IMG/VR virus record: IMGVR_UViG_2896589216_000002 | DNA length: 34,924 nt | Source of the DNA: a virus | Taxonomy: Duplodnaviria; Heunggongvirae; Uroviricota; Caudoviricetes | Reading direction: 5' to 3' (one strand) | In this document: piece after piece, positions 1 through 32,177 of the stretch | Position numbering within the stretch: position 1 is the stretch's first letter | Layout: each line of letters starts with the position of its first letter | The notes under the pieces: generated by a model | Database searches by the model: none | Told to the model about the DNA's origin: nothing | Seen by the model: the letters and a program-made list of their open reading frames with translations, nothing else | Translations under genes and position numbers: made by a program

Positions 1-381
1 ATGCAGAAAAATGTGAATCCCGGCAGGCGAAAAGGCTGCCCTAATTATCCTCCCGAATTTAAACAGCAGCTCGTTGCTGCCTCCTGTGAACCCGGGATAT
101 CCATCTCAAAACTTGCTCTTGAAAATGGCATTAACGCCAATCTGTTGTTCAAATGGCGACAACAATGGCGCGAGGGAAAGCTGCTATTACCTTCTTCAGA
201 GAGCCCCCAGCTACTTCCTGTGACTCTCGATGCAGCTGCCGAACAGCCAGAATCGCTCGCAGAGGATCCGGAAACCCTCAGTATCAGCTGTGAGGTAACG
301 TTCCGGCACGGGACGCTCCGCTTTAATGGCAATGTCAGCGAAAAGCTCCTGACTCTGCTGATACAGGAACTGAAGCGATGA
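1..381 (+). CDS. tnpA: IS66-family accessory protein TnpA (OrfA), first ~7 codons cut by window edge
   Basis: Identical to the 133-aa ORFs at 19886-20287 and 28328-28729 (which start MGTKVSDMQKNVN). Confidence 0.85.
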   Translation: MQKNVNPGRRKGCPNYPPEFKQQLVAASCEPGISISKLALENGINANLLFKWRQQWREGKLLLPSSESPQLLPVTLDAAAEQPESLAEDPETLSISCEVTFRHGTLRFNGNVSEKLLTLLIQELKR

Positions 382-725
382 TCCCGTTACCTTCCGGGAC
401 CAAAATTTGGCTGGTTGCCGGTATCACCGATATGAGAAATGGCTTCAACGGCCTGGCGGCAAAGGTGCAGACGACGCTGAAAGACGATCCGATGTCAGGT
501 CACGTTTTTATCTTCCGTGGGCGTAATGGCAGTCAGGTAAAGCTCCTCTGGTCTACCGGCGATGGACTGTGTCTGCTGACCAAACGGCTGGAGCGCGGCC
601 GCTTCGCCTGGCCGTCAGCCCGGGATGGCAAAGTGTTCCTCACACCGGCACAGCTGGCGATGCTCCTTGAAGGTATCGACTGGCGGCAGCCTAAAAGACT
701 GCTTACGTCCCTGACTATGTTGTAA
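378..725 (+). CDS. tnpB: IS66-family TnpB (OrfB), 115 aa
   Basis: ATGA overlap with tnpA; conserved IS66 OrfB-type sequence; three identical copies in window. Confidence 0.85.
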   Translation: MIPLPSGTKIWLVAGITDMRNGFNGLAAKVQTTLKDDPMSGHVFIFRGRNGSQVKLLWSTGDGLCLLTKRLERGRFAWPSARDGKVFLTPAQLAMLLEGIDWRQPKRLLTSLTML

Positions 726-773
726 GCCTCTTTATCCTGGTCGACGCTGAATGAGCCTGGTAATATACCCGGT

Positions 774-2312
774 ATGAGCAGCTCACTTCCTGACGATATC
801 AATGCACTGAAACGTCTCCTTGCCGAACAGGAGGCGCTGAACCGTGCCCTGCTGGAAAAGCTGAACGAGCGTGAACGCGAAATAGACCATCTGCAGGCAC
901 AGCTGGATAAGCTGCGCCGGATGAACTTCGGCAGCCGCTCCGAAAAAGTCTCCCGTCGTATCGCACAGATGGAAGCTGACCTGAAGGCACTTCAGAAAGA
1001 AAGTGATACCCTTACCGGTCGGGTTGACGACCCGGCCGTGCAGCGCCCGCTGCGTCAAACCCGCACCCGCAAACCGTTCCCCGAATCACTCCCCCGCGAT
1101 GAAAAACGGCTGCTGCCGGCAGCGTCATGCTGCCCGGAATGTGGAGGCTCACTGAGCTATCCGGGTGAGGATGCCGCCGAACAGCTGGAGTTGATGCGCA
1201 GCGTCTTCCGGGTTATCCGGACTGTACGTGAAAAGCATGCCTGTACTCAGTGCGATGCCATCGTGCAGGCCCCCGCGCCTTCACGGCCCATCGAGCGGGG
1301 TATCGCAGGACCGGGGCTGCTGGCCCGCGTGCTGATCTCAAAGTATGCAGAGCACACCCCGCTGTACCGCCAGTCTGAAATGTACGGCCGCCAGGGCGTG
1401 GAGCTGAGTCGTTCACTGCTGTCGGGCTGGGTGGATGCATGCTGCCGGCTACTGTCACCGCTGGAAGAAGCGCTTCAGGACTATGTGCTGACTGACGGTA
1501 AGCTCCATGCTGATGACACGCCTGTCCCGGTGCTGTTGCCAGGCAATAAGAAAACGAAGACCGGGCGGTTATGGACCTACGTTCGTGACGACCGTAACGC
1601 CGGGTCAACGCTGGCGCCGGCGGTGTGGTTCGCTTACAGCCCGGACAGAAAAGGCATCCATCCGCAGACCCATCTTGCGGGGTTCAGTGGTGTACTGCAG
1701 GCGGATGCATACGCCGGGTTCAACGAGCTGTACCGGGATGGCCGGATAACGGAAGCCGCCTGTTGGGCTCACGCCCGCCGTAAAATCCACGATGTGCACG
1801 TTCGCACCCCGTCAGCCCTGACGGAGGAAGCGCTGAAACGGATCGGCGAACTGTACGCCATCGAGGCAGAGATAAGGGGAATGACGGCGGAGCAGCGCCT
1901 TGCCGAACGTCAGTTGAAAACGAAACCGCTGCTGAAATCCCTGGAAAGCTGGCTGCGTGAAAAGATGAAAACCCTGTCGCGACACTCAGAACTGGCGAAA
2001 GCGTTCGCATACGCCCTGAACCAGTGGCCGGCGCTGACGTACTATGCAGATGATGGCTGGGCTGAGGCGGACAATAACATCGCTGAAAATGCGTTGCGGA
2101 TGGTCAGTCTGGGCCGCAAAAACTACCTGTTCTTCGGTTCGGATCATGGAGGAGAGCGGGGAGCGCTGCTGTACAGCCTGATCGGGACGTGCAAACTGAA
2201 CGGAGTGGAGCCAGAAAGCTACCTCCGCTATGTCCTTGACGTCATAGCCGACTGGCCGATAAACCGGGTCGGCGAACTGCTCCCCTGGCGCGTAGCACTG
2301 CCGACTGAATAA
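774..2312 (+). CDS. tnpC: IS66-family transposase TnpC, 512 aa
   Basis: Long ORF with Cys-rich zinc-finger-like region (CCPECG...CTQC); identical to copy 3. Confidence 0.9.
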
Positions 2313-2345
2313 CACATCCCCGTCAATACGGTTCTTGCTGCACGC

Positions 2346-2705
2346 TTACGATTTTGCCAGCATGACTACCGGGGACAGGCGGCCCAGTGAGTCGGGACCA
2401 GCATTCCAGATACGACCGTTCCATTCAAACGTGAACGGCTTCGCCTCCTGTTCTGCGCGCCATGCTTCAATTTCCTGACGTCTGGCCTCTCTGGCCGCTT
2501 CCTGCATTTCTGGTGTCACAGTGAATGGGGCTATCTCACCCCATTTGCCGCTTTGCAGTTCCTGCCAGATTTGCTGACCCGTCGGAGCGACATCATCAGC
2601 GGTGGCTGTGTAGGGGACTGCCTGGTCCCTGTCGTCAAAAAAAACGTCACAGTCTACTGCGCCACTTTCGGTATAACGGGGATTAATGATTTTTTTAGTT
2701 TCCAC
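2346..2705 (-). pseudogene. tail fiber assembly protein (Tfa-like), GTG start at 2705; 3' end abuts IS66 and stop codon lies inside the IS terminus
   Basis: RBS gagga upstream of GTG (VETKKIINPRY...); last sense codon 2349-2351 and stop 2346-2348 straddle the IS66 end. Confidence 0.5.
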
Positions 2706-15893: not shown

Positions 15894-16169
15894 GTGGCTT
15901 CCATTTCCATCAGATGTCCTTCCTGCTCCGCTACTGAAGGCGTGGTGCGTAACGGCAAAAGCACTGCCGGACATCAGCGCTATCTCTGCTCTCATTGCCG
16001 TAAAACATGGCAACTACAGTTCACTTACACCGCCTCTCAGCCCGGTACGCACCAGAAAATCATTGATATGGCCATGAATGGCGTCGGATGTCGCGCCAGT
16101 GCACGCATTATGGGCGTTGACCTCAACACGGTTTTCCGTCACTTAAAAAACTCAGGCCGCAGTCGGTAA
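15894..16169 (+). CDS. insA: IS1 InsA
   Basis: 91-aa InsA. Confidence 0.9.
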
Positions 16170-16195
16170 CCTCGCGCATACAACCGGGCAGTGAT

Positions 16196-16591
16196 GTGAT
16201 TGTCTGCGCTGAAATGGACGAACAGTGGGGCTACGTCGGTGCTAAATCACGTCAGCGCTGGCTGTTTTACGCGTATGACAGGATACGGAGGACGGTTGTG
16301 GCGCACGTCTTCGGTGAACGCACTCTGGCCACACTGGAGCGTCTTCTGAGCCTGCTGTCGGCCTTTGAGGTCGTGGTATGGATGACGGATGGCTGGCCGC
16401 TGTATGAATCACGCCTGAAGGGAAAGCTGCACGTTATCAGCAAGCGTTACACTCAGCGCATTGAGCGACATAATCTGAATCTGAGACAACATCTGGCAAG
16501 GCTGGGACGGAAGTCACTGTCGTTCTCAAAATCGGTGGAGCTGCATGACAAGGTCATCGGGCATTATCTGAACATAAAACACTATCAGTAA
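16196..16591 (+). CDS. insB: IS1 InsB
   Basis: InsB frame. Confidence 0.9.
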
Positions 16592-17955
16592 GTTGGAGTC
16601 ATTACCGACAGTTTACCGTCAATACCGCGGGCAGTTTCCGCCAGTACCAGTGGATCGGTGCCATAAACGTTATCTGTTGCAAATCCCTGAAGTCGTACGC
16701 CGGAGGGATACAGATTATTCACTGTCAGCGTGATAATGGCATCCGCCGCAGTGATGGTGTTGTTGTTACCCGACATTTACTGGACCTCCGTGGATGCAAT
16801 AACAAGTTTCTGGATACTACCGCCGTCACAGTACCAGAGCGTACAGGACGGACTGCTACGGGTTGCCCGCAAAGAGGGAAGCATATCGCCGATATACAGG
16901 TAATAGCCGGTGGCAAACAACGTTGAAGAAACATCTGCCTCCACAACATTGTTAATCTGTTTCTTCTGCGCCTCCGTCAGTGTCACCCCTTCACGGATCC
17001 CTCCCAGCGTTTGTACTGCTGGATAACGTCACTCATTGACGCTGCAACCAGCGCCCGCCCTTCATTGTTGTAGGGGACCGTCTGGTTTGACTTGAATAAT
17101 GCGATCACCGCCCCTGCAAACTGGCATTCAGCCAGATTTGCCCGCAGAAACTGTCCAGCCATTTAAAATCACCGGTAATAGTGCCATCCGCCCAGTAATC
17201 TTCCACCACACTGTTTTCCGCATATTTTCCGTAGAAATTGTAACCTGCGGCGATCAGCGCATCATAATCGCTGCCACTGGTAACATCAGCGGCCAGCCCC
17301 TCATACTCGCGGAACTTGAATGATACACGCCCCTCTGGTCGGATAAAATCAAGGCACGCTGCATACCCCAGTACCGCTGCAGCCCGGTTACCATCAGTCG
17401 CGAAAACAGGTACAACAGAGCTGTAGTTATTGACAGCAATTATCTGGTAAGCGATGTGTTCAGTACTGCCTTTTACTCTGGCGTTGCCGCTGGTTGTCCA
17501 TGCCACATAAAAGTAACGCTTGCCCTGCCCGTTTGCCCATGCAGAAAACGCCAGGTGTTGCTCGTCAGTGACCTCAGATACCGTGGAAAAACCCGCCCAT
17601 TGCTGGGAAGCGGCCTTAATGGCTGCCATTGTGTCAGGGACATCAGATACAGGCGCGCCCCGGGATATCACCGCACCGGTGTTACTGGTCATCTTCAGGA
17701 GTTCTGCTGCCGATCCACTGCCGAACGTTATCGTGGTACTCCCGGGTTTCGCCCCGGCGACAGTAATGACAAAAGCATTCTGTGTGGTATCGAATACCAC
17801 TGTAGCCACTGCTGCGGTCAGCGCTGTCTGTAGTGCCGTTGCAGCAGCGGCGAAGCTGGCGACACCGTTAAAATTCACTTCAATGCTGACGCTTTTCCCG
17901 TTAATACTCAGCATCAGCGTAAGCGTGCAGCAAGAACCGTATTGACGGGGATGTG

Positions 17956-19493
17956 TTATTCAGTCGGCAGTGCTACGCGCCAGGGGAGCAGTTCGCCGAC
18001 CCGGTTTATCGGCCAGTCGGCTATGACGTCAAGTACATAGCGGAGGTAGCTTTCTGGCTCCACTCCGTTCAGTTTGCACGTCCCGATCAGGCTGTACAGC
18101 AGCGCTCCCCGCTCTCCTCCATGATCCGAACCGAAGAACAGGTAGTTTTTGCGGCCCAGACTGACCATCCGCAACGCATTTTCAGCGATGTTATTGTCCG
18201 CCTCAGCCCAGCCATCATCTGCATAGTACGTCAGCGCCGGCCACTGGTTCAGGGCGTATGCGAACGCTTTCGCCAGTTCTGAGTGTCGCGACAGGGTTTT
18301 CATCTTTTCACGCAGCCAGCTTTCCAGGGATTTCATCAGCGGTTTCGTTTTCAACTGACGTTCGGCAAGGCGCTGCTCCGCCGTCATTCCCCTTATCTCT
18401 GCCTCGATGGCGTACAGTTCGCCGATCCGTTTCAGCGCTTCCTCCGTCAGGGCTGACGGGGTGCGAACGTGCACATCGTGGATTTTACGGCGGGCGTGAG
18501 CCCAACAGGCGGCTTCCGTTATCCGGCCATCCCGGTACAGCTCGTTGAACCCGGCGTATGCATCCGCCTGCAGTACACCACTGAACCACGCAAGATGGGT
18601 CTGCGGATGGATGCCTTTTCTGTCCGGGCTGTAAGCGAACCACACCGCCGGCGCCAGCGTTGACCCGGCGTTACGGTCGTCACGAACGTAGGTCCATAAC
18701 CGCCCGGTCTTCGTTTTCTTATTGCCTGGCAACAGCACCGGGACAGGCGTGTCATCGCATGGAGCTTACCGTCAGTCAGCACATAGTCCTGAAGCGCTTC
18801 TTCCAGCGGTGACAGTAGCCGGCAGCATGCATCCACCCAGCCCGACAGCAGTGAACGACTCAGCTCCACGCCCTGGCGGCCGTACATTTCAGACTGGCGG
18901 TACAGCGGGGTGTGCTCTGCATACTTTGAGATCAGCACGCGGGCCAGCAGCCCCGGTCCTGCGATACCCCGCTCGATGGGCCGTGAAGGCGCGGGGGCCT
19001 GCACGATGGCATTGCACTGAGTACAGGCATGCTTTTCACGTACAGTCCGGATAACCCGGAAGACGCTGCGCATCAACTCCAGCTGTTCGGCGGCATCCTC
19101 ACCCGGATAGCTCAGTGAGCCTCCACATTCCGGGCAGCATGACGCTGCCGGCAGCAGCCGTTTTTCATCGCGGGGGAGTGATTCGGGGAACGGTTTGCGG
19201 GTGCGGGTTTGACGCAGCGGGCGCTGCACGGCCGGGTCGTCAACCCGACCGGTAAGGGTATCACTTTCTTTCTGAAGTGCCTTCAGGTCAGCTTCCATCT
19301 GTGCGATACGACGGGAGACTTTTTCGGAGCGGCTGCCGAAGTTCATCCGGCGCAGCTTATCCAGCTGTGCCTGCAGATGGTCTATTTCGCGTTCACGCTC
19401 GTTCAGCTTTTCCAGCAGGGCACGGTTCAGCGCCTCCTGTTCGGCAAGGAGACGTTTCAGTGCATTGATATCGTCAGGAAGTGAGCTGCTCAT
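17956..19493 (-). pseudogene. tnpC: IS66 tnpC with 1-nt deletion (copy 2)
   Basis: gtcatcgcatgg near 18755-18760 versus gtcatcagcatgg in copy 3; ORF splits into 324 + 260 aa. Confidence 0.85.
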
Positions 19494-19541
19494 ACCGGGT
19501 ATATTACCAGGCTCATTCAGCGTCGACCAGGATAAAGAGGC

Positions 19542-19889
19542 TTACAACATAGTCAGGGACGTAAGCAGTCTTTTAGGCTGCCGCCAGTCGATACCTTCAA
19601 GGAGCATCGCCAGCTGTGCCGGTGTGAGGAACACTTTGCCATCCCGGGCTGACGGCCAGGCGAAGCGGCCGCGCTCCAGCCGTTTGGTCAGCAGACACAG
19701 TCCATCGCCGGTAGACCAGAGGAGCTTTACCTGACTGCCATTACGCCCACGGAAGATAAAAACGTGACCTGACATCGGATCGTCTTTCAGCGTCGTCTGC
19801 ACCTTTGCCGCCAGGCCGTTGAAGCCATTTCTCATATCGGTGATACCGGCAACCAGCCAAATTTTGGTCCCGGAAGGTAACGGGATCAT
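19542..19889 (-). CDS. tnpB: IS66 TnpB (copy 2)
   Basis: Identical to copies 1 and 3. Confidence 0.85.
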   Translation of the reverse strand: MIPLPSGTKIWLVAGITDMRNGFNGLAAKVQTTLKDDPMSGHVFIFRGRNGSQVKLLWSTGDGLCLLTKRLERGRFAWPSARDGKVFLTPAQLAMLLEGIDWRQPKRLLTSLTML

Positions 19890-20287
19890 CGCTTCAGTTC
19901 CTGTATCAGCAGAGTCAGGAGCTTTTCGCTGACATTGCCATTAAAGCGGAGCGTCCCGTGCCGGAACGTTACCTCACAGCTGATACTGAGGGTTTCCGGA
20001 TCCTCTGCGAGCGATTCTGGCTGTTCGGCAGCTGCATCGAGAGTCACAGGAAGTAGCTGGGGGCTCTCTGAAGAAGGTAATAGCAGCTTTCCCTCGCGCC
20101 ATTGTTGTCGCCATTTGAACAACAGATTGGCGTTAATGCCATTTTCAAGAGCAAGTTTTGAGATGGATATCCCGGGTTCACAGGAGGCAGCAACGAGCTG
20201 CTGTTTAAATTCGGGAGGATAATTAGGGCAGCCTTTTCGCCTGCCGGGATTCACATTTTTCTGCATATCTGACACTTTGGTTCCCAC
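19886..20287 (-). CDS. tnpA: IS66 TnpA (copy 2)
   Basis: 133-aa full-length. Confidence 0.85.
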   Translation of the reverse strand: MGTKVSDMQKNVNPGRRKGCPNYPPEFKQQLVAASCEPGISISKLALENGINANLLFKWRQQWREGKLLLPSSESPQLLPVTLDAAAEQPESLAEDPETLSISCEVTFRHGTLRFNGNVSEKLLTLLIQELKR

Positions 20288-20687
20288 TACTTATTTGGTG
20301 GACACCACTTTGTCTAATTCGTCAGATTCTGACCAGACGGTTCAGGCTGTACGCTTACGCATCAGCGTGCCGGAAAGTTTTTGTAGCTGTTCAACAGTCG
20401 CGCCCTTAAACGAACCGCTACGTAACCAGGCCGCCGATGGGGCAGGACTGAAACGGGAAAACAACAATTGCCCCGGCGTCCTGGTGGCATTTTTGAAGCC
20501 CTGGAAATAAAGCTGAGCGCGTGCGTACTCATCGGATAATGCACCAAAATACGCGGCCACATCATCCGGAGAGGAAAACGGAACCACAGTGCCGACCGGA
20601 AGTAACGGATTACTGGTCAACAGCAGGCCGTTAAGATCGACGGCATTACCCGCCACAGCCAGCACACCGGGATTTATCTGTACATCT

Positions 20688-21233
20688 TTACTGAGTGGAA
20701 TTGGCATTATCAGCCTCCGTTGTCCGGGTGATCACGTTGTCAAAAAACATCAGGGAAGTTGTGACCACAGGGTTAATCTGCATCTGAATATCAAGCGTCC
20801 AGCGCGGTTCATACTGTTGCTGACCGTTGGGGAATGTGGTGTTAAAGGGCTCTGAGCAATACAGCGGGGAAATCAGCCCACCGCCCTGCCGGAAAAGCCG
20901 TACGGAAAATTCAGACCGGAAAAGCGTTGCCAGCACCTGAGCGTTATCTGCCGCGTGAGGGCCGTAGAAATCAAGCTGGCAACGCCATTTTGTGGTACGG
21001 GTGATATGCTGAGAGCCCTCACCAGCCTGCGCTGGCGCAGAATATGCCACTACCGCAGTGGATAATCCGGTAACATCAATGCCCGTCATGGTGATGAAAT
21101 TCCCCTGAGGCATCGGGACCTGGTTCTGCTGCGTTCGTTCAATCCCGGCATCAGAAAAAAGCCCCCGGTGATAATCACCGAGGGCCTGATAAAGAGCGCT
21201 TTCCGTAACGGAGAGGGTCACACCTGAAGGCAT
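20688..21233 (-). CDS. phage virion protein immediately upstream of sheath, 181 aa
   Basis: Tight operon; position of tail terminator/completion proteins. Confidence 0.4.
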   Translation of the reverse strand: MPSGVTLSVTESALYQALGDYHRGLFSDAGIERTQQNQVPMPQGNFITMTGIDVTGLSTAVVAYSAPAQAGEGSQHITRTTKWRCQLDFYGPHAADNAQVLATLFRSEFSVRLFRQGGGLISPLYCSEPFNTTFPNGQQQYEPRWTLDIQMQINPVVTTSLMFFDNVITRTTEADNANSTQ

Positions 21234-21583
21234 ACAATAACCCTCGTCCAGTCAGGCCAGATTTCCAGTACCTCAATCACCAGCCACGTTTCATCGCCAA
21301 TAACAAATTTATCGCCTCCCTGTTGCCGGGCACGGTTAAGCCCGCACCAGTTACCATCGGTATACAATGTGGCGAAAACTCCCTGCTGGTTAAGATTATC
21401 AAGATGACGTAAATCAGCCTGGGTGACAGCCTGCTTTTGCCCCCTGACGGAAACCGGATCTTCATACTCAGGTACGCGGGAATAATCTGCCTGCTGTGTA
21501 CTCCCGCGGGAACGATAAACCAGCGCGTCTGTAAAGGGATTTACCCGACGTACTGCGCCGGAAACAATACCGTGAAAGTTCAT
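21218..21583 (-). CDS. phage head-tail joining protein, 121 aa
   Basis: Overlapping coupled ORF in structural operon. Confidence 0.4.
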   Translation of the reverse strand: MNFHGIVSGAVRRVNPFTDALVYRSRGSTQQADYSRVPEYEDPVSVRGQKQAVTQADLRHLDNLNQQGVFATLYTDGNWCGLNRARQQGGDKFVIGDETWLVIEVLEIWPDWTRVIVCLQV

Positions 21584-21834
21584 TTTTTGCCCCCGTCTAC
21601 AGAATAATCAACGCTGTCCATCATATGTCCGGTTTCAATAAGCGGGTTGTTAAAACCCTTTTGCCGGGCAGTGGATGCAGCGTTGGACGGACTTTCCCAG
21701 TCGCGAACAGACATCTGCAACTGCCCTTTGATATGTTCTCCCATACACACCAGAGCGGTCGCAGTATCAAAATCATTCGCCCGTAATAAGGTCGCCATTT
21801 TTTCGCCCCATTCGGGACTTTTATGTTCGATCAT
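21580..21834 (-). CDS. phage structural protein, 84 aa
   Basis: ATGA coupling on both sides. Confidence 0.35.
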   Translation of the reverse strand: MIEHKSPEWGEKMATLLRANDFDTATALVCMGEHIKGQLQMSVRDWESPSNAASTARQKGFNNPLIETGHMMDSVDYSVDGGKK

Positions 21835-22163
21835 CTTACGGAAGAACGGACGGGGGGAATGGTGACCGTGTGCTCAGGAATAACCACATCCTGAACAAAA
21901 TTCCCTTTACCGGCTTTGACAAAGCGGTGCCCGGTTTCTCCCGTTTTTTCGTTATAGCGAAAGTGGAGCGTCTGCTCACGGGCGGGTATGACCGCTCTTC
22001 CACCAAACTCCTGAACTGCGGCAATATAAGCCACTGACGTACCGTCAGGGTAAGTTGCTCCCTCAAGAAAACCCACTTTGAGTTTTTTACCCAATGAAAG
22101 GTTCGCGGCAACCTGTTTCAGCTTCTGCCGGAACTGTTTGCCACCTGTGACTTTATTTACCAT
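21831..22163 (-). CDS. phage head-tail connector/completion protein (HK97 gp10-like size), 110 aa
   Basis: Operon position. Confidence 0.4.
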
Positions 22164-22612
22164 CGACGCCCCCTCCCGTATCCCCGGTAATAATGCCCCG
22201 GATATCGCGAAGGTGCCCCCCCGGAATGATACTGCATTGAGCGGTATGGCGCTGTCGCCTGCCAGTAGTCAGCACCCCAGGGGGTCTGGAGATACCACCA
22301 CGACGCATCATTACTGCCGCTATTATCCACCGATACCGATACAGAACCTTCCGACGCACTGGTGATACGCCCCACCAGACCAGCCTGCCCGTCTCTCCCG
22401 TTTCCCAGCCCCCGCAATGCGCACAGATGCGCAACCAGCAGGAACAGAAGCTGTTCCCGCTCCTTCAGGTCGGTAACCGGACTGTCGTCCGTGTTATCCA
22501 GGTACAACGCGGTCGCCCGGTTAAACACCGCCGTCAGTAGCTCCGGTGTCACCGTGGAAAACTCCGGGTACAGACTGACAAACATCCGACAGTCAAACGT
22601 CACCGTACCCAT
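22157..22612 (-). CDS. phage head-tail adaptor-like protein, 151 aa
   Basis: Operon position; Gly/Arg/Tyr-rich C-terminus. Confidence 0.4.
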
Positions 22613-22617
22613 AGCGT

Positions 22618-23685
<1,068 letters not shown>

Positions 23686-23694
23686 ATGGCGACA

Positions 23695-23910
23695 TTATTC
23701 ACCTCTCGCAGCCTTACGCTTATCTTCTCTTATTTTGAAATACAGATTCGTCAGATAAGTCAGAAGCCCCAGAAGCAGACTTCCCAGCACACCAATCGCA
23801 GCCCACTGTGATGGACTGACCTGATCCAACCACTGCAAAAACCAGTAGCCGGCACTGCCGGCGGAGGTGCCGTAGGCAATGCCCGTTGAAATTTTGTCCA
23901 TGGATTTCAT
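23695..23910 (-). CDS. phage-21-type pinholin (S21 family), 71 aa, dual-start motif MKSMDK
   Basis: Near-identical to the S21 holin as I recall it ([30 protein letters not shown]...); second Met at 23901. Confidence 0.8.
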
Positions 23911-24202
23911 AGCCTCACCTCCGCAAATAACGGATGGCGTAGTTTTACACTGAGAAATGAAAGGGATTTGAAAAGAAAAAAACGCAAAAGCGGGCGAAAC
24001 GATATATACAGTAAGGAAAGCACTCTATCCAACAAACCACCCACAGTTAATCGGAATAAAAGCAGAGTGCTTATGAATGATCGCACGCCCGAAGGTTAGT
24101 ATTTCTGCACAGCAATTTTGCAAAAAAAGGCGATCATTCATAACTTAAACGTCTTTCAGTCACTCCGGGATTTCCCATCATCGCAGACTGAAAGACTCTG
24201 AC

Positions 24203-24277
<75 letters not shown>

Positions 24278-24280
24278 ATA

Positions 24281-24357
<77 letters not shown>

Positions 24358-24359
24358 CT

Positions 24360-24436
24360 GGCCCACCACCGAGGACTCGAACCTCGCACCGTCAACTTAG
24401 AAGGTTGATGCTCTATCCGGATGAGCTAGTGGTGGT
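24360..24436 (-). tRNA. tRNA-Arg (anticodon UCU), phage argN/argO-like
   Basis: Anticodon loop CTTCTAA, T-loop TTCGAGT, CCA; unusual C1:G72 acceptor pair. Confidence 0.8.
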
Positions 24437-24437
24437 T

Positions 24438-24514
24438 GGTGGCCCTTGCTGGACTTGAACCAGCGACCTGGCGATTATGAGTCGCTCGCTCTGACCAACT
24501 GAGCTAAAGGGCCG
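24438..24514 (-). tRNA. tRNA with CAU anticodon, ileX/ileZ-like (probable tRNA-Ile2; Met not excluded)
   Basis: GGCCCTT acceptor, anticodon loop CTCATAA, T-arm GCTGGTTCAAGTCCAGC resembling E. coli ileX. Confidence 0.7.
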
Positions 24515-24593
24515 GAGGCAGAATAATAACCATATGTCATCACATCTGCAAACTCATCTGACCACCAGCACGTTTAACGTCCTGTGCCGTTTT

Positions 24594-25894
<1,301 letters not shown>

Positions 25895-26232
25895 CTGATA
25901 AAAGCGCCCTGTACTGGTTAGCAATAGCAAATTTACTACCAGCTGCTCTGATTTCAAGAAAGCTGTACACCTCCCTTATGCCTATATTTTTAACCGGAAC
26001 ACCACCAAAGTATTCACTTATGATTTTCAACCTCTGGTTGTGTCTTTTCATGGTGTTTGTGCTTAATTGTCTACGCTCTATTTCATTTCTGAAATTTAAT
26101 ATCAGCTCGCAGAATAATGTTACGCTATTACCTTTTATTCTATCCAGTAAGCTTATATGTTGCGTGGATAATAATTCCATATTTGCCGCAATAGCCTCAT
26201 TAACTGCAATTCTTTTGTCTCTTCCGATTCCA
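25895..26232 (-). pseudogene. AT-rich integrase-like fragment (N-terminal/SAM-like region), cut by IS1 upstream and IS911 downstream
   Basis: Frame ...RDKRIAVNEAIAANMELLSTQHISLLDRIK...LSTNTMKRHNQRLKIISEYFGGVPVKNIGIREVYSFLE...; low-GC codons. Confidence 0.35.
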
Positions 26233-26359
26233 GGTGATGACTCCAACTTACTGATAGTGTTTTATGTTCAGATAATGCCCGATGACCTTGTCATGCAGCT
26301 CCACCGATTTTGAGAACGACAGTGACTTCCGTCCCAGCCTTGCCAGATGTTGTCTCAGA
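26233..26359 (-). mobile_element. IS1 fragment (127 bp, IRR end plus insB 3' end), truncated by IS66 copy 3
   Basis: Identical to the 4462-4588 end of IS1 copy 1 up to ...tgtctcaga. Confidence 0.9.
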
Positions 26360-26396
26360 GTAAGCGTGCAGCAAGAACCGTATTGACGGGGATGTG

Positions 26397-27935
26397 TTAT
26401 TCAGTCGGCAGTGCTACGCGCCAGGGGAGCAGTTCGCCGACCCGGTTTATCGGCCAGTCGGCTATGACGTCAAGTACATAGCGGAGGTAGCTTTCTGGCT
26501 CCACTCCGTTCAGTTTGCACGTCCCGATCAGGCTGTACAGCAGCGCTCCCCGCTCTCCTCCATGATCCGAACCGAAGAACAGGTAGTTTTTGCGGCCCAG
26601 ACTGACCATCCGCAACGCATTTTCAGCGATGTTATTGTCCGCCTCAGCCCAGCCATCATCTGCATAGTACGTCAGCGCCGGCCACTGGTTCAGGGCGTAT
26701 GCGAACGCTTTCGCCAGTTCTGAGTGTCGCGACAGGGTTTTCATCTTTTCACGCAGCCAGCTTTCCAGGGATTTCAGCAGCGGTTTCGTTTTCAACTGAC
26801 GTTCGGCAAGGCGCTGCTCCGCCGTCATTCCCCTTATCTCTGCCTCGATGGCGTACAGTTCGCCGATCCGTTTCAGCGCTTCCTCCGTCAGGGCTGACGG
26901 GGTGCGAACGTGCACATCGTGGATTTTACGGCGGGCGTGAGCCCAACAGGCGGCTTCCGTTATCCGGCCATCCCGGTACAGCTCGTTGAACCCGGCGTAT
27001 GCATCCGCCTGCAGTACACCACTGAACCCCGCAAGATGGGTCTGCGGATGGATGCCTTTTCTGTCCGGGCTGTAAGCGAACCACACCGCCGGCGCCAGCG
27101 TTGACCCGGCGTTACGGTCGTCACGAACGTAGGTCCATAACCGCCCGGTCTTCGTTTTCTTATTGCCTGGCAACAGCACCGGGACAGGCGTGTCATCAGC
27201 ATGGAGCTTACCGTCAGTCAGCACATAGTCCTGAAGCGCTTCTTCCAGCGGTGACAGTAGCCGGCAGCATGCATCCACCCAGCCCGACAGCAGTGAACGA
27301 CTCAGCTCCACGCCCTGGCGGCCGTACATTTCAGACTGGCGGTACAGCGGGGTGTGCTCTGCATACTTTGAGATCAGCACGCGGGCCAGCAGCCCCGGTC
27401 CTGCGATACCCCGCTCGATGGGCCGTGAAGGCGCGGGGGCCTGCACGATGGCATCGCACTGAGTACAGGCATGCTTTTCACGTACAGTCCGGATAACCCG
27501 GAAGACGCTGCGCATCAACTCCAGCTGTTCGGCGGCATCCTCACCCGGATAGCTCAGTGAGCCTCCACATTCCGGGCAGCATGACGCTGCCGGCAGCAGC
27601 CGTTTTTCATCGCGGGGGAGTGATTCGGGGAACGGTTTGCGGGTGCGGGTTTGACGCAGCGGGCGCTGCACGGCCGGGTCGTCAACCCGACCGGTAAGGG
27701 TATCACTTTCTTTCTGAAGTGCCTTCAGGTCAGCTTCCATCTGTGCGATACGACGGGAGACTTTTTCGGAGCGGCTGCCGAAGTTCATCCGGCGCAGCTT
27801 ATCCAGCTGTGCCTGCAGATGGTCTATTTCGCGTTCACGCTCGTTCAGCTTTTCCAGCAGGGCACGGTTCAGCGCCTCCTGTTCGGCAAGGAGACGTTTC
27901 AGTGCATTGATATCGTCAGGAAGTGAGCTGCTCAT
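26397..27935 (-). CDS. tnpC: IS66 transposase TnpC (copy 3, intact)
   Basis: 512 aa, identical to copy 1. Confidence 0.9.
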
Positions 27936-27983
27936 ACCGGGTATATTACCAGGCTCATTCAGCGTCGACCAGGATAAAGAGGC

Positions 27984-28331
27984 TTACAACATAGTCAGGG
28001 ACGTAAGCAGTCTTTTAGGCTGCCGCCAGTCGATACCTTCAAGGAGCATCGCCAGCTGTGCCGGTGTGAGGAACACTTTGCCATCCCGGGCTGACGGCCA
28101 GGCGAAGCGGCCGCGCTCCAGCCGTTTGGTCAGCAGACACAGTCCATCGCCGGTAGACCAGAGGAGCTTTACCTGACTGCCATTACGCCCACGGAAGATA
28201 AAAACGTGACCTGACATCGGATCGTCTTTCAGCGTCGTCTGCACCTTTGCCGCCAGGCCGTTGAAGCCATTTCTCATATCGGTGATACCGGCAACCAGCC
28301 AAATTTTGGTCCCGGAAGGTAACGGGATCAT
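27984..28331 (-). CDS. tnpB: IS66 TnpB (copy 3)
   Basis: Identical. Confidence 0.85.
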   Translation of the reverse strand: MIPLPSGTKIWLVAGITDMRNGFNGLAAKVQTTLKDDPMSGHVFIFRGRNGSQVKLLWSTGDGLCLLTKRLERGRFAWPSARDGKVFLTPAQLAMLLEGIDWRQPKRLLTSLTML

Positions 28332-28729
28332 CGCTTCAGTTCCTGTATCAGCAGAGTCAGGAGCTTTTCGCTGACATTGCCATTAAAGCGGAGCGTCCCG
28401 TGCCGGAACGTTACCTCACAGCTGATACTGAGGGTTTCCGGATCCTCTGCGAGCGATTCTGGCTGTTCGGCAGCTGCATCGAGAGTCACAGGAAGTAGCT
28501 GGGGGCTCTCTGAAGAAGGTAATAGCAGCTTTCCCTCGCGCCATTGTTGTCGCCATTTGAACAACAGATTGGCGTTAATGCCATTTTCAAGAGCAAGTTT
28601 TGAGATGGATATCCCGGGTTCACAGGAGGCAGCAACGAGCTGCTGTTTAAATTCGGGAGGATAATTAGGGCAGCCTTTTCGCCTGCCGGGATTCACATTT
28701 TTCTGCATATCTGACACTTTGGTTCCCAC
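28328..28729 (-). CDS. tnpA: IS66 TnpA (copy 3)
   Basis: Identical. Confidence 0.85.
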   Translation of the reverse strand: MGTKVSDMQKNVNPGRRKGCPNYPPEFKQQLVAASCEPGISISKLALENGINANLLFKWRQQWREGKLLLPSSESPQLLPVTLDAAAEQPESLAEDPETLSISCEVTFRHGTLRFNGNVSEKLLTLLIQELKR

Positions 28730-28826
28730 TACTTATTTGGTGGACACCACTTTGTCTAATTCGTCAGATTCTGACCAGACGGTTCAGGCTGTACGCTTAC
28801 GTTTTTATAATCCGGCCATGACATTT

Positions 28827-29186
28827 TTACAACATTGTCAGTGCGTTAAGGCGGGATGTTTTTGGCTGACGCCAGTCCAGCTTATCGAGGAGCATTGCCA
28901 GTTGCGAGCGGGTAATGGATACCTTGCCGTCACGCACAGCAGGCCAGATAAACTGGCCTTCCTCCAGGCGTCTGGTGAACAGGCACAGACCATCAGCATC
29001 AGCCCACAGGATTTTAATCATGTCACCCCGTCGGCCACGGAAGATGAACAGGTGACCGGAGAAGGGATTATCATTCAGCACATGCTGTACCTGTTCACCC
29101 AGCCCGTTGAAAGACTTACGCATATCGGTTATCCCAGCAACGAGCCAGATGCGGGTGCCTGACGGGAGTGAGATCATCGTCCCCAC
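28827..29186 (-). CDS. tnpB: IS66-family TnpB (second element), 119 aa
   Basis: Clear paralogue of the 115-aa TnpB (...WLVAGITDMR...NGL...FIFRGRRG...). Confidence 0.8.
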   Translation of the reverse strand: MGTMISLPSGTRIWLVAGITDMRKSFNGLGEQVQHVLNDNPFSGHLFIFRGRRGDMIKILWADADGLCLFTRRLEEGQFIWPAVRDGKVSITRSQLAMLLDKLDWRQPKTSRLNALTML

Positions 29187-29593
29187 CCGGTCAGTTCACG
29201 GATCAACACTGTGAGCAGCTCTGGTGAAGGATTTTCCAGCGTCATGTTACCGTGACGGAACTCCACCTTGCAGGAGCTGGCACTAACTGTAGTCTGAGTA
29301 GATAAAGACGGAGTAAGAGCAGCCACCGGTTCTTTCGGCTCATCCGGCGTTATCTCCACAGGTAATAATTCAACGCCAGTGTCAGAAGAGGTTGTTACCG
29401 GAAGACGCCGCGATATGCGCCCTTCGTTCTGCCAGAGCCTGAGCCATTTGAACAGCAGGTTATCATTGATATCGTGTTCCCGGGCAATACGGGCAACAGA
29501 GGCTCCTGGTTGTGAAGCCAGTTTAACCATTTGAAGTTTAAACTCATTTGAAAATGATCTGCGGGGTTCTGCAGATAATGCTTTCTGTTCCAT
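29174..29593 (-). CDS. tnpA: IS66-family TnpA (second element), 139 aa
   Basis: HTH protein paralogous to tnpA. Confidence 0.75.
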   Translation of the reverse strand: MEQKALSAEPRRSFSNEFKLQMVKLASQPGASVARIAREHDINDNLLFKWLRLWQNEGRISRRLPVTTSSDTGVELLPVEITPDEPKEPVAALTPSLSTQTTVSASSCKVEFRHGNMTLENPSPELLTVLIRELTGWGR

Positions 29594-29679
29594 AACAGGT
29601 GTCCACTAGTTGAAAAGGTGGGCACCTACGTTACCAATACAGGCTTAATGGCTACATACGGCGGTCAGTTTACGCTTAC

Positions 29680-30017
29680 CAAAATACGCTGTTGCTTTTT
29701 TTAATATATATCGCTCAAGGCGAGCTTCATTTAACGCCTTACGCAGTTGCAGAATTTCAGATTCCAGTTCAGCCACCGTGCGGGAACCAGGAGTACCGAG
29801 CCCTTTTCTGGCGGCGGTAACCCATTGTCCTAAAGTGCCTTCAGGAAGGGATAATCGGGAAGCGCCTTCACTGATCGAAAGTTGATTTTCAAGAACCGTT
29901 CTGACAGCTTCGGCTTTGAACTCTTTAGAGTAACGTTGGTTTTTTCTGCTCATTATTAGCTCCTTCTGATGCCATTCTATTTCAGGAAGGAGTGTCCGTT
30001 AAACTCAGGCTACCTCA
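29680..30017 (-). mobile_element. IS600 fragment (IRL + most of orfA), truncated by the IS66-family remnant
   Basis: OrfA MSRKNQRYSKEFKAEAVRTVLENQLSISEGASRL...; end tgaggtagcctgagtttaacggacactcc (complement, 29989-30017); A7G slippery run. Confidence 0.85.
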
Positions 30018-30076
30018 GCCTGAGGGCAGGTGTAAAACAATAATCAAGCATGGGGTTCATATCCATAGCTCCATTT

Positions 30077-30622
30077 TTATTTTAAGGAAAGCAACTGCTC
30101 TACGGTCATGTTTTTAATTGCGCCCCGGTTTACAAGAGTCCAGCCCTGTTTTTCCAGATAAAACCGGAAAGTCTCCAGGGTACAGACCAGTGCGCCATCA
30201 GGAACGGTTTCGGTGAATTCGACATTGCCGAATTTGTCGAAGTGAACAACCAGAGTGCGACCATCACCCGGAATCATCTTGTCAGCAGGTGGGGTGTTAT
30301 TCTGGCGCAGTTCGGCCTCCATGCGGTCGAACTCAGCAATGTAGGCTTCCTTGAATGTGGCGGCTTTTTTGCCCGTGAAGCCCATCACCAGGAAAACGAA
30401 GCCGTTTTTGGTGATTTGGTAGGCGTTATAAGAATTGCCGCGGTGTTCGAATTTAACCCGCGAAAAGTTGCTGGTTAAAAATAGTTCAGAACATTCGAGG
30501 GATTCTATTTTTTGAACAACATGGTGATGCTGCTTGCCAAAAAACTCAGCAATCGAAATAGAAGTAGTGACGGCGCGACCATTTTCGATGGTTACGTCAG
30601 GGTGAGAAAGGGTAGTAGCCAT
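30077..30622 (-). CDS. Rha-family phage regulatory protein, ~182 aa from ATG at 30622
   Basis: N-terminal Rha motif (VTTSISIAEFFGKQHHHVVQKIESL); RBS gagga 8 nt upstream; longer 274-aa ORF in track is probably an over-extension. Confidence 0.65.
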   Translation of the reverse strand: MATTLSHPDVTIENGRAVTTSISIAEFFGKQHHHVVQKIESLECSELFLTSNFSRVKFEHRGNSYNAYQITKNGFVFLVMGFTGKKAATFKEAYIAEFDRMEAELRQNNTPPADKMIPGDGRTLVVHFDKFGNVEFTETVPDGALVCTLETFRFYLEKQGWTLVNRGAIKNMTVEQLLSLK

Positions 30623-30788
30623 AATGACATCCTCAAGTGATAAGTTAATTAACTCACCAGCAGAGGTGCTAATCTCATGGGTGGTGAGACGCACAGGGTT
30701 AGCACTACCGGTCACTCGAGAACCCGGCCAGCCTTGCGGCTGCCCCGCACGCCTCACCATAATTTGAATGTGGCTGTGCATTACGCAT

Positions 30789-30814
30789 AAAAAAAACCGC
30801 TTCAGCGCGGTTAT
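30789..30814 (-). terminator. strong rho-independent terminator
   Basis: Minus-strand hairpin aaccgcgctgaagcggtt followed by T8. Confidence 0.7.
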
Positions 30815-30866
30815 GCGCTCGAGTAACTTTCGGGGTGCTAATCCCGGCGCCCGTTTTATGAGGTGC
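30789..30866 (-). ncRNA. candidate ~80-nt small RNA or leader transcript bounded by the promoter and terminator above
   Basis: No start codon inside; predicted RNA gcaccucauaaaacgggcgccgggauuagcaccccgaaaguuacucgagcgcauaaccgcgcugaagcgguuuuuuuu. Confidence 0.4.
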
Positions 30867-30872
30867 AGGTGC

Positions 30873-30901
30873 ATTATAATTCCACCCGTTCTGGTTTTCA
30901 A
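30873..30901 (-). promoter_or_regulatory. near-consensus sigma70 promoter (TTGAAA - 17 nt - TATAAT) reading toward lower coordinates
   Basis: Minus-strand ttgaaaaccagaacgggtggaattataat. Confidence 0.55.
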
Positions 30902-30939
30902 TAGCTACATTCAACATTTTCTCTTTCCTTTCATCACCG

Positions 30940-31085
30940 AAGTGAATTTTGTGATGCGGTGCCTAGTGCCTCCAGGTGACGTTAACCAGTTAACAATTAC
31001 AGTCGGCTTTCCCACCCAAACCAATAAGGACTAACATGACTTTTAACTGTGCCGCGTGCGCTTAGCCGCATTCACCGCATCACAA
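30940..31085. repeat. 22-bp perfect inverted repeat (aagtgaattttgtgatgcggtg) flanking a 102-bp spacer with central gttaaccagttaac palindrome
   Basis: Arms at 30940-30961 and 31064-31085. Confidence 0.8.
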
Positions 31086-31086
31086 A

Positions 31087-31150
31087 ATTCACTTTAAAAA
31101 GGGCGGACATCAGCCAGCAATTAAACCGATGCCGCCAACTGGTACTTCAC
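31087..31150 (-). ncRNA. DicF-like small RNA candidate
   Basis: Downstream of ydfA in a dicA-led operon; hairpin GGCGGCATC...GATGTCCGCC + T5; resembles the DicF core as I recall it (GUUUGGCGGUAUCAG...CUGCCGCCCUUUUU). Confidence 0.45.
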
Positions 31151-31338
31151 ACAGCAATGTCGTTATTTACAACCGGAAGCGCACTCCCACCATTTAAATT
31201 TCACAGACAAGACCGACTCTTTATGAATACCGGAAATGCGCCTTCGTGTTGTGCCCGGTTTTATTTCACCACCTCCGGGCTTTGGTGGCCTCGGCTATAC
31301 CTCTACAGCGAGAATATTGAATTAATCCAATAAATGGA

Positions 31339-31491
31339 TTAGCTGGTATTTTTGGCAAGCCAGCGACGTGCGCCAGCTTCGGTTTTAAACGTTTTGCTTT
31401 TGGTATACGTCATGGCGGTGAATGTGCCGTCCTGATTGGGAAACACGCCACACACTAGGGATTCGTTGTTGCCAAGATCGATAGTATCCAT
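31339..31491 (-). CDS. ydfA: YdfA-like protein (DUF1391), 51 aa from ATG at 31491
   Basis: MDTIDLGNNESLVCGVFPNQDGTFTAMTYTKSKTFK... closely matches Qin YdfA; RBS gagg upstream. Confidence 0.75.
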   Translation of the reverse strand: MDTIDLGNNESLVCGVFPNQDGTFTAMTYTKSKTFKTEAGARRWLAKNTS

Positions 31492-31693
31492 GCTGACCTC
31501 ATTTCCCCTTAACGCCGGGGTAGCGGAACTGTTTGCTGAGAACACCGTGCGGTGTCTTGATGAATGAAATTTAGAATAACCTAAGGTGTTGGGTTAAGAT
31601 TTTATGTAGAAAAACCTAAGTTTTTTTGATGTAAAAAACACAAGTGTTTGAAAGTTTGTGCTTTTTATTACAGGGTGTGGAGAAAAAAGGGGA

Positions 31694-32101
31694 TTATTTG
31701 TTTGCGCTTCTTTTGCGAGCTTTGAGTAGTTCTTCAAAAAGTTTGTTGAAATTTTCAACTCGAGCACGCATCTCTGACAACAGGGCCTTTTGCTCTGACT
31801 CAGGCAGTGCGTCGAACAGTTGAAGTAACTCTTTTTGATCTTCTGTCAGAATGGCTGGCTGATTATCCGGGATCGGTTCGCCTGGTTGTTTATCTTCATC
31901 CCCAAAAAGAAGCCAAGTCGGTGAGCACTGAAGCGCTTGGCTCAGTGCGAATAATCTTTTCCCCGCCGGCTGTGTTTCATCTCTTTCCCATTGAGAAATT
32001 GTTACGTGAGCCACTTTGACCAGCTTACCTAATGCGGCCTGAGACAGTTTTAATTTTTTACGCCTATGTAAGAGGCGAGCACCGAAGGTTTCGTTTTTCA
32101 T
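31694..32101 (-). CDS. dicA: DicA-like XRE-family HTH repressor, 135 aa
   Basis: Motifs LQCSPTWLLFGDEDKQP, LFDALPESEQ, EMRARVENFNKLFEELLKAR match DicA; divergent from a Cro-like gene. Confidence 0.8.
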   Translation of the reverse strand: MKNETFGARLLHRRKKLKLSQAALGKLVKVAHVTISQWERDETQPAGKRLFALSQALQCSPTWLLFGDEDKQPGEPIPDNQPAILTEDQKELLQLFDALPESEQKALLSEMRARVENFNKLFEELLKARKRSANK

Positions 32102-32177
32102 ATTAGGGAATTCTAATTTTTCTTGACTTAGGTTTCTCTACGAGCTAGTTTCCTTAGGAAAATCTAAGGAGCTCGAT
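32102..32177. promoter_or_regulatory. dicA-dicC divergent control region with repeated CTTAGG/CCTAAG motifs (candidate operators)
   Basis: ttaggga, gacttaggttt, ccttaggaaaatctaagga; same hexamer recurs downstream of dicA (31580-31630). Confidence 0.4.

Follow-up and report, generated by a model that had tools for sequence, protein, structure and literature searches.

How does a complete insertion sequence (IS) come to lie in a heap of IS fragments with a different 8-bp sequence at each of its ends, and which DNA was lost on the way? The question is raised by positions 26233-30017 of the window, i.e., the whole stretch of 34,924 nucleotides that was analyzed. A sequence-only reading had described this region as a nested scar consisting of an IS1 fragment, a third IS66 copy, a second IS66-family remnant and an IS600 fragment, formed by sequential insertion followed by IS-mediated deletion or recombination. 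The states of the locus preserved in sister genomes support that order of events. In our reconstruction from these genomes, the scar very probably arose through nested IS insertions followed by a single 5,012-bp deletion.

Composition of the scar

To judge from its sequence, the locus is a four-fragment IS pile-up within a decayed lambdoid prophage of Shigella dysenteriae. Positions 20000-34924 of the window are 100% identical to S. dysenteriae chromosome CP026832.1. All 4 named elements in 26233-30017, together with their boundaries, were confirmed to the base, and matches to known ISs at 99-100% identity, extending for hundreds to thousands of bases, are not due to chance. The scar and its surroundings comprise the following features.

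24668..25895, strand not given: IS911 copy (repeat I3)
25896..26232, minus strand: internal fragment of the lambdoid prophage integrase gene int, with IS911 on its left and the IS1 end on its right
26233..26359, strand not given: IS1 end with the insB-proximal terminal repeat, 127 bp, assigned by identity to full IS1 copies
26360..28800, minus strand: ISEc22 copy 3, complete, 2,441 bp, assigned by ORFs, terminal repeats and identity to ISEc22-family copies
26397-27935, minus strand: copy 3 tnpC, ORF intact
27984-28331, minus strand: copy 3 tnpB, ORF intact
28328-28708, minus strand: copy 3 tnpA, ORF intact
28801..29679, minus strand: remnant of a second IS66-family element, positions 1-880 of 2,506 bp, with tnpA, tnpB and one terminal repeat
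28827-29177, minus strand: remnant tnpB
29174-29593, minus strand: remnant tnpA; the terminal repeat ends at 29679
29680..30017, minus strand: IS600 start, 338 bp, with the left terminal repeat and orfA
30018..30020, strand not given: GCC, half of the 3-bp IS600 target duplication, downstream of rha
30077-30901: prophage rha gene (Rha family)
32984-34211, strand not given: second IS911 copy (repeat I3)

The 2 IS911 copies are a 100% identical inverted pair bracketing a 7,088-bp segment that contains the scar, and in one sister genome (L010) this segment is reversed relative to ybhA and holin. The int fragment is 99.4-99.7% identical to int of the intact prophage in genomes L015 and L017; a 147-aa ORF (25803-26246) crosses it and extends into the IS1 and IS911 ends.

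The IS1 end, which adjoins copy 3 as had been described, is 98-99% identical to the 2 complete IS1 copies of the window and equally to the IS1 at the same locus in the precursor genome L024, which is complete (768 bp); the 127-bp fragment is thus IS1. Its last 8 bp (26352-26359, GTCTCAGA) form one half of an ISEc22 target duplication. The full IS1 in L024 has no target duplication of its own, and at its outer end 4,382 bp are missing relative to the intact prophage L017. This older loss, which spans recE through xis and takes in the 5' part of int, can be given only as ~4.4 kb, the reference being an E. coli prophage with 79-86% identity in the adjoining region.

At the opposite edge, the IS600 (IS3 family) fragment matches annotated IS600 at 99.1-99.7% identity along its 338 bp. 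It retains the terminal repeat (TGAGGTAGCC...) and orfA, which continues into the IS66 remnant as a hybrid 102-aa ORF (29645-29953), and is missing orfB and the right end. Positions 29680-29687 (CAAAATAC) are one half of the target duplication of the second IS66 element. In L024, where IS600 carries its 3-bp duplication, GGC stands on each side.

Copy 3 itself has both termini (GTAAGCGTGCAGC... and GTAAGCGTACAGC...), with imperfect terminal repeats that start with GTAAGCG: the tnpC-side repeat at 26360 (GTAAGCGTGCAGCAAGAACC) and the tnpA-side repeat, or IRL, ending at 28800 (GTAAGCGTACAGCCTGAACC, reverse strand). Its genes stand in the order tnpA, tnpB and DDE tnpC, and their products score above all NCBIfam cut-offs (IS66 TnpA, 97 bits; IS66_TnpB, 120; transpos_IS66, 465). 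Copies on Shigella plasmids whose transposase bears the RefSeq name 'IS66-like element ISEc22 family' match it at 99.4-99.7% identity, and the name ISEc22 is taken from these. Two further copies are present in the window.

1..2349, plus strand: ISEc22 copy 1, truncated at the window edge and in the opposite orientation to copies 2 and 3
17919..20358, minus strand: ISEc22 copy 2, a simple insertion lying within a phage tail gene and flanked by a perfect 8-bp duplication (GCATCAGC)

Copy 3 is identical to copy 1 across the visible 2,349 bp. Copy 2, in which the loss of 1 bp shifts the tnpC reading frame, was used as an internal control, representing an undisturbed insertion. The flanks of copy 3 are indeed unlike, with gtctcaga at the left end, gtttttat at the right end and no duplication in the window.

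On its tnpA side, copy 3 adjoins the second IS66-family element, which has indeed lost tnpC. This remnant is only 65-67% identical to ISEc22, and 100% identical to a full-length copy on an S. dysenteriae plasmid (L006). The full 2,506-bp element was defined in L007, where it is flanked by the duplication TTTTAGCT; its intact tnpC, the start of which is missing from the window, begins GGCCATGAATC.... The segment 28801-29679 falls short of the 3 genes and 2 repeats of an IS66 element and is predicted to be unable to move on its own. ISEc23, the closest named relative, has the same gene order, terminal repeat and family, but only 86-89% nucleotide identity over tnpA-tnpB, and the second element is therefore a different IS; RefSeq names its transposase just 'IS66 family transposase'.

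Sister genomes restore the missing DNA

The precursor arrangement is preserved in L024, in the order rha, IS600 (1-337), the full 2,506-bp second IS66 element, ISSso6, IS600 (329-1264), ydaE, full IS1, int fragment and IS911. The second IS66 element is flanked there by GTATTTTG on both sides. It had been thought to truncate IS600; the 8-bp duplication, on view in both L019 and L024, points instead to a clean insertion, and the 3' part of IS600 went later, in the 5,012-bp deletion that also took tnpC and most of IS1.

A subsequent state is found in L019 and L026, where ISEc22 lies inside the same IS1; CP026834 and UYIT01 have a locus of the L019 type. The IRL flank of this ISEc22, TCTGAGAC, when reverse-complemented gives the other flank in the window, GTCTCAGA, and the parts of the split IS1 overlap by exactly these 8 bp. 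The partner of the gtctcaga flank is thus present in sister genomes and not in the window genome, and the original 8-bp duplication of copy 3 (TCTGAGAC), absent from the window, is recovered by combining L019/L026 with the window. Within the window genome, correct boundaries yield no matching duplications, and copy 3 has none because the deletion replaced one of its flanks.

Comparison with related genomes had been proposed as the way to identify the deleted segment, and it recovers the interval as L019 11154-16165 (5,012 bp). The second IS66 element lost 1,623 bp, tnpC included, and a further 1,524 bp consisted of ISSso6 together with the displaced terminal bases of that element. IS600 lost 936 bp, the prophage 280 bp (ydaE), and IS1 649 bp, or 641 bp net of the duplicated target. 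The sequence-only reading had spoken of a loss of unknown prophage DNA: the loss is real, but the segment is now identified, and IS sequence makes up 4,732 of the 5,012 bp, the prophage contributing only the 280-bp ydaE remnant. At the deletion junction (28800/28801), the last base of the ISEc22 IRL is joined to a position 4 bp upstream of the tnpC ATG of the second element. A sequence built stepwise from this model is colinear with window positions 31953-22966 over 8,990 bp at 99.84% identity.

Several apparent parallels proved to be different. In S. dysenteriae plasmids (H51-H57, aligning as one piece) that were considered as carrying the same ISEc22 insertion in IS1, the site lies 11 bp further into IS1 and has its own unlike flanks. 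E. coli N25 and many other genomes align over 1.2 kb with the junction of the second IS66 element and IS600, but the junction bases differ and IS600 is cut elsewhere. In L010, the second IS66 element seemed to be cut at the window position but in fact continues into tnpC. A search for the whole scar in complete E. coli genomes and the plasmid collection returned no record covering at least 80% of it.

As a separate observation, 6 contexts show ISSso6 (IS110 family) at an identical site in IS66-family elements, ...ACG^CTTAC, which lies 5 bp into the terminal repeat. This recurrent site may be of more interest than the scar.

Order of events and mechanism of the deletion

The locus can be accounted for by 5 steps. 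IS600 would have inserted at a site downstream of rha, with the 3-bp duplication GGC, and IS1, with its adjacent ~4.4-kb loss, would have come to sit ~280 bp beyond it. The second IS66 element would then have entered IS600 at position 337, duplicating GTATTTTG, and ISSso6 its terminal repeat. In the fourth step, ISEc22 would have inserted into IS1, 127 bp from the int-proximal end, duplicating TCTGAGAC. Finally, a deletion that began at the ISEc22 IRL would have removed everything up to a point lying 4 bp upstream of the tnpC ATG in the second IS66 element. The first, third and fourth steps, as well as the extent of the fifth, can be read from the sister genomes, whereas the chemistry of the fifth is what we infer.

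For this last step, we give about an even chance to a two-stage route, in which ISEc22 inserted a second time and the two copies then underwent homologous recombination. The incoming ISEc22 would have inserted in direct orientation just upstream of tnpC, and recombination between the two copies would leave one hybrid ISEc22 with one flank from each site. This route is supported because ISEc22 copies have swapped flanks repeatedly: flank pairs are split among genomes (TCTGAGAC, GATTTTGC and ACTTAACT), as for copy 1, whose tnpC-side flank GCAAAATC pairs with the tnpA-side flank GATTTTGC from sister genomes, and L032 holds a hybrid of copies 1 and 2. It is further favored because ISEc22 copies of one genome have private SNPs in common and the element has transposed to at least 6 sites in the lineage, and because the same signature has been demonstrated in Agrobacterium (PMC6778807). 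The two-copy intermediate, which would be expected to contain the junction GGTTCTTGCTGCACGCTTAC-ATAAAAAC-GGCCATGAATCAAAAATACC (tnpC-side end of ISEc22, duplicated target, start of the second element's tnpC), is carried by none of the sampled genomes; GTTTTTAT, the partner of the second-element-side flank ATAAAAAC, is next to no ISEc22 tnpC-side end in ~20 genomes. The IS1-side flank of copy 3 has its partner (TCTGAGAC in L019/L026), and the ATAAAAAC flank is without one in the sampled genomes. SNP patterns were uninformative as a test for a hybrid copy 3, because the 21 sites that vary among 27 ISEc22 copies are not numerous enough, form too mosaic a pattern and in part are homopolymer indels. 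As a cause of the deletion, homeologous recombination of ISEc22 with the second IS66 element was rejected: the junction joins position 1 to position 880, which are non-homologous, and the elements are 65-67% identical.

A one-step adjacent deletion is a serious though somewhat less probable explanation. Here, ISEc22 residing in IS1 would have undergone replicative or one-ended intramolecular transposition to a target 5 kb away, upstream of the other tnpC; the element would have kept its position and its original tnpC-side flank, its IRL would have been joined to the new target, and the 5,012 bp would have been lost as a circle. Such an event would account for one endpoint falling exactly on the last base of the ISEc22 IRL and the other on a non-homologous internal position of a different element, for the intact ISEc22 with its other flank untouched, and for the sampling of only the one-copy precursor (L019 and L026) and the deleted product, with no two-copy intermediate. 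It also takes a single event, compared with two for insertion and recombination. Yet the sequence product would be the same as that of the two-step route, so that parsimony is its sole advantage, and IS66-family transposases are not known to carry out replicative or one-ended intramolecular transposition; our literature search found no report of adjacent deletions by this family, nor relevant mechanistic data. If this route were the true one, the locus would be a natural record, and indirect evidence, of IS66-family TnpC acting replicatively or one-endedly.

It is improbable that the deletion junction was copied in ready-made, with the tnpA-tnpB part of the second IS66 element already joined to ISEc22 on the virulence plasmid or at another chromosomal copy, and with crossovers in the 880 bp of IS66 and 2.4 kb of ISEc22 homology. 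These strains do carry further copies of both elements, including the 100% identical second IS66 element on S. dysenteriae plasmids, and shared SNPs suggest gene conversion among ISEc22 copies. However, the copy in the ATCC 49346 plasmid record is full length, without ISEc22 at position 880, no plasmid in the collection matches contiguously across the junction at ~99%, and the chromosomal copy in L010 also runs on into tnpC. A mis-join of repeated IS copies in long-read assembly, conceivable in a region dense in 100% identical repeats of 1.2-2.4 kb and with homopolymer-type indels in sister assemblies, is highly improbable, since the identical arrangement recurs in 5 independent complete assemblies (CP026807, CP026823, CP026825, CP026832 and CP045784) and the second-IS66/ISEc22 junction also in CP026819 and the unrelated draft AKNG01000014.

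Comparison with known systems

IS1, IS26, Tn3 and Mu produce adjacent deletions by intramolecular replicative transposition. The deletion described here resembles these in starting exactly at an IS end, in keeping the IS and its other flank, and in the lack of a duplication; it differs in that the IS66 family is not known to use this chemistry and that the product is indistinguishable from that of two-copy recombination. Wider interest is confined to this question of IS66-family transposition chemistry. As members of the ISEc8/IS679 group, the ISEc22 copies share the gene order tnpA-tnpB-tnpC, GTAAGCG repeats and, where undisturbed (copy 2), an 8-bp duplication. Copy 3 departs from the typical ISEc22 in having no duplication in the window genome and its matching half only in sister genomes, which illustrates that such genomes can restore apparently "missing" target duplications.

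The closest parallel to the recombination between two ISEc22 copies is the deletion in Agrobacterium pAt15955, in which 2 direct copies recombined and the one IS66 that remained carried 8-bp flanks of different sequence (Barton et al. 2019, PMC6778807). Both cases present a lone IS66-family element, each 8-bp flank of which derives from a different original site, the DNA between having been lost. In pAt15955, both parental copies were observed and 270 kb were deleted (PMC6778807), whereas at the Shigella locus only one parental copy is documented and 5 kb were lost, nearly all of it IS DNA. The deleted DNA carried no cargo except the ydaE remnant, and the significance of the locus is mostly one of bookkeeping.

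IS-driven decay and rearrangement are well described in Shigella (Hawkey et al. 2020, PMC7373316; Seferbekova et al. 2021, PMC8072062), and the locus is an ordinary instance of this decay, real but routine. It has in common with that literature the expansion of IS1, IS600, IS911, and IS66- and IS110-family elements and the loss of prophages and genes (PMC7373316; PMC8072062). There is no difference in kind; what is added is one locus resolved base by base, a worked example of Shigella prophage erosion in which nested insertions, an IS-end-anchored deletion and repeated flank swaps via IS recombination come together.

Anatomy of the scar and its source genome

The scar lies within a lambdoid prophage whose intact order, seen in the related loci L015 and L017, is ydaT-cro-cI-...-rha-ydaE-recE-gam-...-xis-int, beside ybhA/modC. 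Reading of 25800-30600, together with an ORF listing and a search for IS termini, confirmed to the base the elements and boundaries of the sequence-only reading:

26233-26359, IS1 end, 127 bp
26360-28800, IS66-family element (ISEc22 copy 3), 2,441 bp, complete, with both terminal repeats
28801-29679, second IS66-family element, a remnant with one terminal repeat, tnpA and tnpB
29680-30017, IS600 fragment, the first 338 bp

Copy 3 has intact tnpA, tnpB and tnpC (all NCBIfam scores above the cut-off) and shares 99.4-99.7% identity with copies on Shigella plasmids that carry an ISEc22-family annotation. The second IS66 remnant, 65-67% identical to copy 3, matches a full-length copy on an S. dysenteriae plasmid at 100%, its closest named relative, ISEc23, being only 86-89% identical. 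The 8-bp flanks of copy 3, gtctcaga and gtttttat, are indeed unlike, so there is no duplication in the window; copy 2 (17919-20358), with a perfect GCATCAGC duplication, provides an internal control.

Sister genomes were retrieved by exact protein look-up with the cI-like repressor (31694-32101) and two junction-specific hybrid ORFs, a 102-aa IS600-orfA/IS66 fusion and a 147-aa int/IS1 fusion, yielding about 20 Shigella chromosomes. The 102-aa ORF (29645-29953) opens with IS600 OrfA sequence and stops inside the terminal repeat of the second IS66 element, an element lying just downstream of the IS600 A-run, presumably the OrfAB frameshift site. The exact protein occurs on 18 contigs, all those examined being S. 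dysenteriae-like, and makes a handy marker. Among the E. coli complete genomes and the plasmids searched, none contained the whole scar structure. Window positions 20000-34924 are 100% identical to CP026832.1; the adjoining accession, CP026833.1, is the plasmid of S. dysenteriae ATCC 49346, and both presumably come from a single assembly.

Earlier states in sister genomes

Two sister loci, L010 and L032, hold rha, a whole IS600, ydaE, a whole IS1, an int fragment and IS911. L024 adds to this state the full 2,506-bp second IS66 element within IS600, split into 1-337 and 329-1264, which overlap where the element went in, with the 8-bp duplication GTATTTTG on both sides of the element; the terminal repeat of the second IS66 element in turn holds an IS110-family element, named ISSso6 in RefSeq. 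L019 and L026 additionally carry ISEc22 within the same IS1. Its tnpA-side flank, TCTGAGAC, is the reverse complement of the window's tnpC-side flank, GTCTCAGA, and the IS1 part in L019 (120-768) overlaps the window's 127-bp end by exactly those 8 bp. The "missing" duplication of copy 3 therefore exists, split between genomes: the absence of target duplications reported earlier holds within the window and fails across genomes, where the halves pair up. In UYIT01, both halves lie on one contig (L026, L028), with an inversion between them. These states support the proposed succession of insertions followed by IS-mediated deletion or recombination.

A 5,012-bp deletion

Comparison with related genomes, the suggested check, located the deleted segment: the window lacks L019 11154-16165 (5,012 bp), made up as follows:

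1,623 bp, tnpC and most of the far repeat of the second IS66 element
1,524 bp, ISSso6 and displaced terminal bases of the second IS66 element
936 bp, 3' part of IS600
280 bp, prophage spacer with a ydaE remnant
649 bp, IS1 (641 bp once the 8-bp duplicated target is discounted)

The deletion is bounded at one end by the final base of the ISEc22 tnpA-side repeat and at the other by a position 4 bp upstream of the tnpC ATG of the second IS66 element. A model sequence, L024 with ISEc22 placed in IS1 with its duplication and the deleted interval removed, is colinear with window 31953-22966 over 8,990 bp at 99.84% identity (9 mismatches, 4 gaps). The direction is unambiguously that of a deletion, because the rest of each of three interrupted elements, matching exactly, lies in the missing piece, something that no insertion can create. 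Contrary to the sequence-only reading, it was not the second IS66 element that truncated IS600, since the 3' part of IS600 went with the deletion; DNA was lost as that reading held, but the segment is now identified and is 94% IS sequence, without cargo apart from the ydaE remnant.

The real prophage loss is an older event, at the outer end of IS1. IS1 at the scar has no duplication, and about 4.4 kb of intact prophage is missing there, from recE through xis together with the 5' part of int. This size is an approximation, since identity to the reference prophage in the neighbourhood is no more than 79-86%. IS600, also an older insertion, is flanked by a GGC duplication. In L011 and L016 12083-12110 (S. 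boydii-like chromosomes CP049281 and UAUR01), the rha-proximal IS600 is cut to its terminal 27 bp, abutting IS911, an independent and different truncation of the same insertion.

Mechanism of the deletion

Recombination between ISEc22 and the second IS66 element is excluded, as the junction positions are non-homologous and the elements only 65-67% identical. Two other routes give an identical product. In the one we favour, at about even confidence, a second ISEc22 would have inserted in direct orientation upstream of the second IS66 element's tnpC and then recombined with the ISEc22 copy in IS1, with loss of the interval. Both ingredients are directly observed in the lineage: ISEc22 has inserted at six or more sites, and its copies have exchanged flanks four times or more, as seen from the split pairs TCTGAGAC, GATTTTGC and ACTTAACT and from a copy 1 x copy 2 hybrid in L032. 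Private SNPs common to the ISEc22 copies within one genome also count for recombination, and experiments on IS66 in Agrobacterium have shown the same signature (PMC6778807).

Somewhat less probable is one-step intramolecular transposition by the resident ISEc22, which is more parsimonious and fits the absence, in about 20 genomes, of both a two-copy ISEc22 intermediate and the GTTTTTAT partner flank; however, a literature search found no evidence of such transposition for IS66-family transposases. Patch conversion from a ready-made donor junction is improbable, no such junction having been found on plasmids or elsewhere, and an assembly artefact can practically be dismissed, since the junctions recur in five independent complete assemblies and an unrelated draft.

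Other rearrangements in and around the window

Flanks of the three window ISEc22 copies (1-2349, 17919-20358 and 26360-28800) and of a fourth site, between zitB and ybgS, are swapped among S. dysenteriae genomes (compared loci L023, L027, L028, L032, L033, L035 and L037). The half-duplications GATTTTGC, TCTGAGAC and ACTTAACT find partners only across loci or genomes, a pattern that indicates several inversions by recombination between ISEc22 copies. In copy 2, a 1-bp deletion breaks tnpC up into two ORFs of 324 and 260 aa (18519-19493 and 17956-18738); as the same copy is intact in some sister genomes, the deletion either arose recently or reflects a homopolymer error in sequencing.

Inverted, 100% identical IS911 copies (24668-25895 and 32984-34211) bracket a 7,088-bp segment holding the scar, rha, cI and ydaT. 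In L010 this segment is reversed relative to ybhA/int-3' and the holin side, so recombination between these two copies has flipped it. Partial IS911 segments (22966-23685, 720 bp; 24647-24716, 70 bp), in inverted arrangement, lie immediately to the left of the full IS911 and indicate more IS911-associated breakage beside a phage holin remnant.

Most of the window (2346-22956) is a second, myovirus-type prophage remnant, in which the gene calls made on sister genomes give Pfam matches to E217-like tail proteins, a sheath initiator, a baseplate wedge, an SLT-domain tape measure and tail-fibre assembly. Besides ISEc22 copies 1 and 2, it is interrupted by:

4462-5229 and 15839-16606, IS1 copies, inverted, 100% identical
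about 7217-8490, IS2-like element

Relation to known systems

In sister loci (L019 12777-14300, L024, L027 11154-12680 and L038-L041 1501-3024), ISSso6 (IS110 family) occupies a constant position, ...ACG^CTTAC, 5 bp inside IS66-family terminal repeats. Among the six contexts are at least four distinct repeats or copies, those of the second IS66 element and of ISEc22 included, and the pattern looks like repeat-targeted insertion, resembling that of IS4321/IS5075, which insert in Tn21 repeats. The target is apparently not discussed in the portions consulted of the literature mentioning ISSso6.

In Shigella, the established mode of genome decay comprises IS expansion, nested insertions, IS-anchored deletions and IS-mediated inversions (PMC7373316). 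Sharing its nested insertions and IS-anchored deletion with that mode, the scar is a tidy example of known IS-driven decay rather than a new kind.
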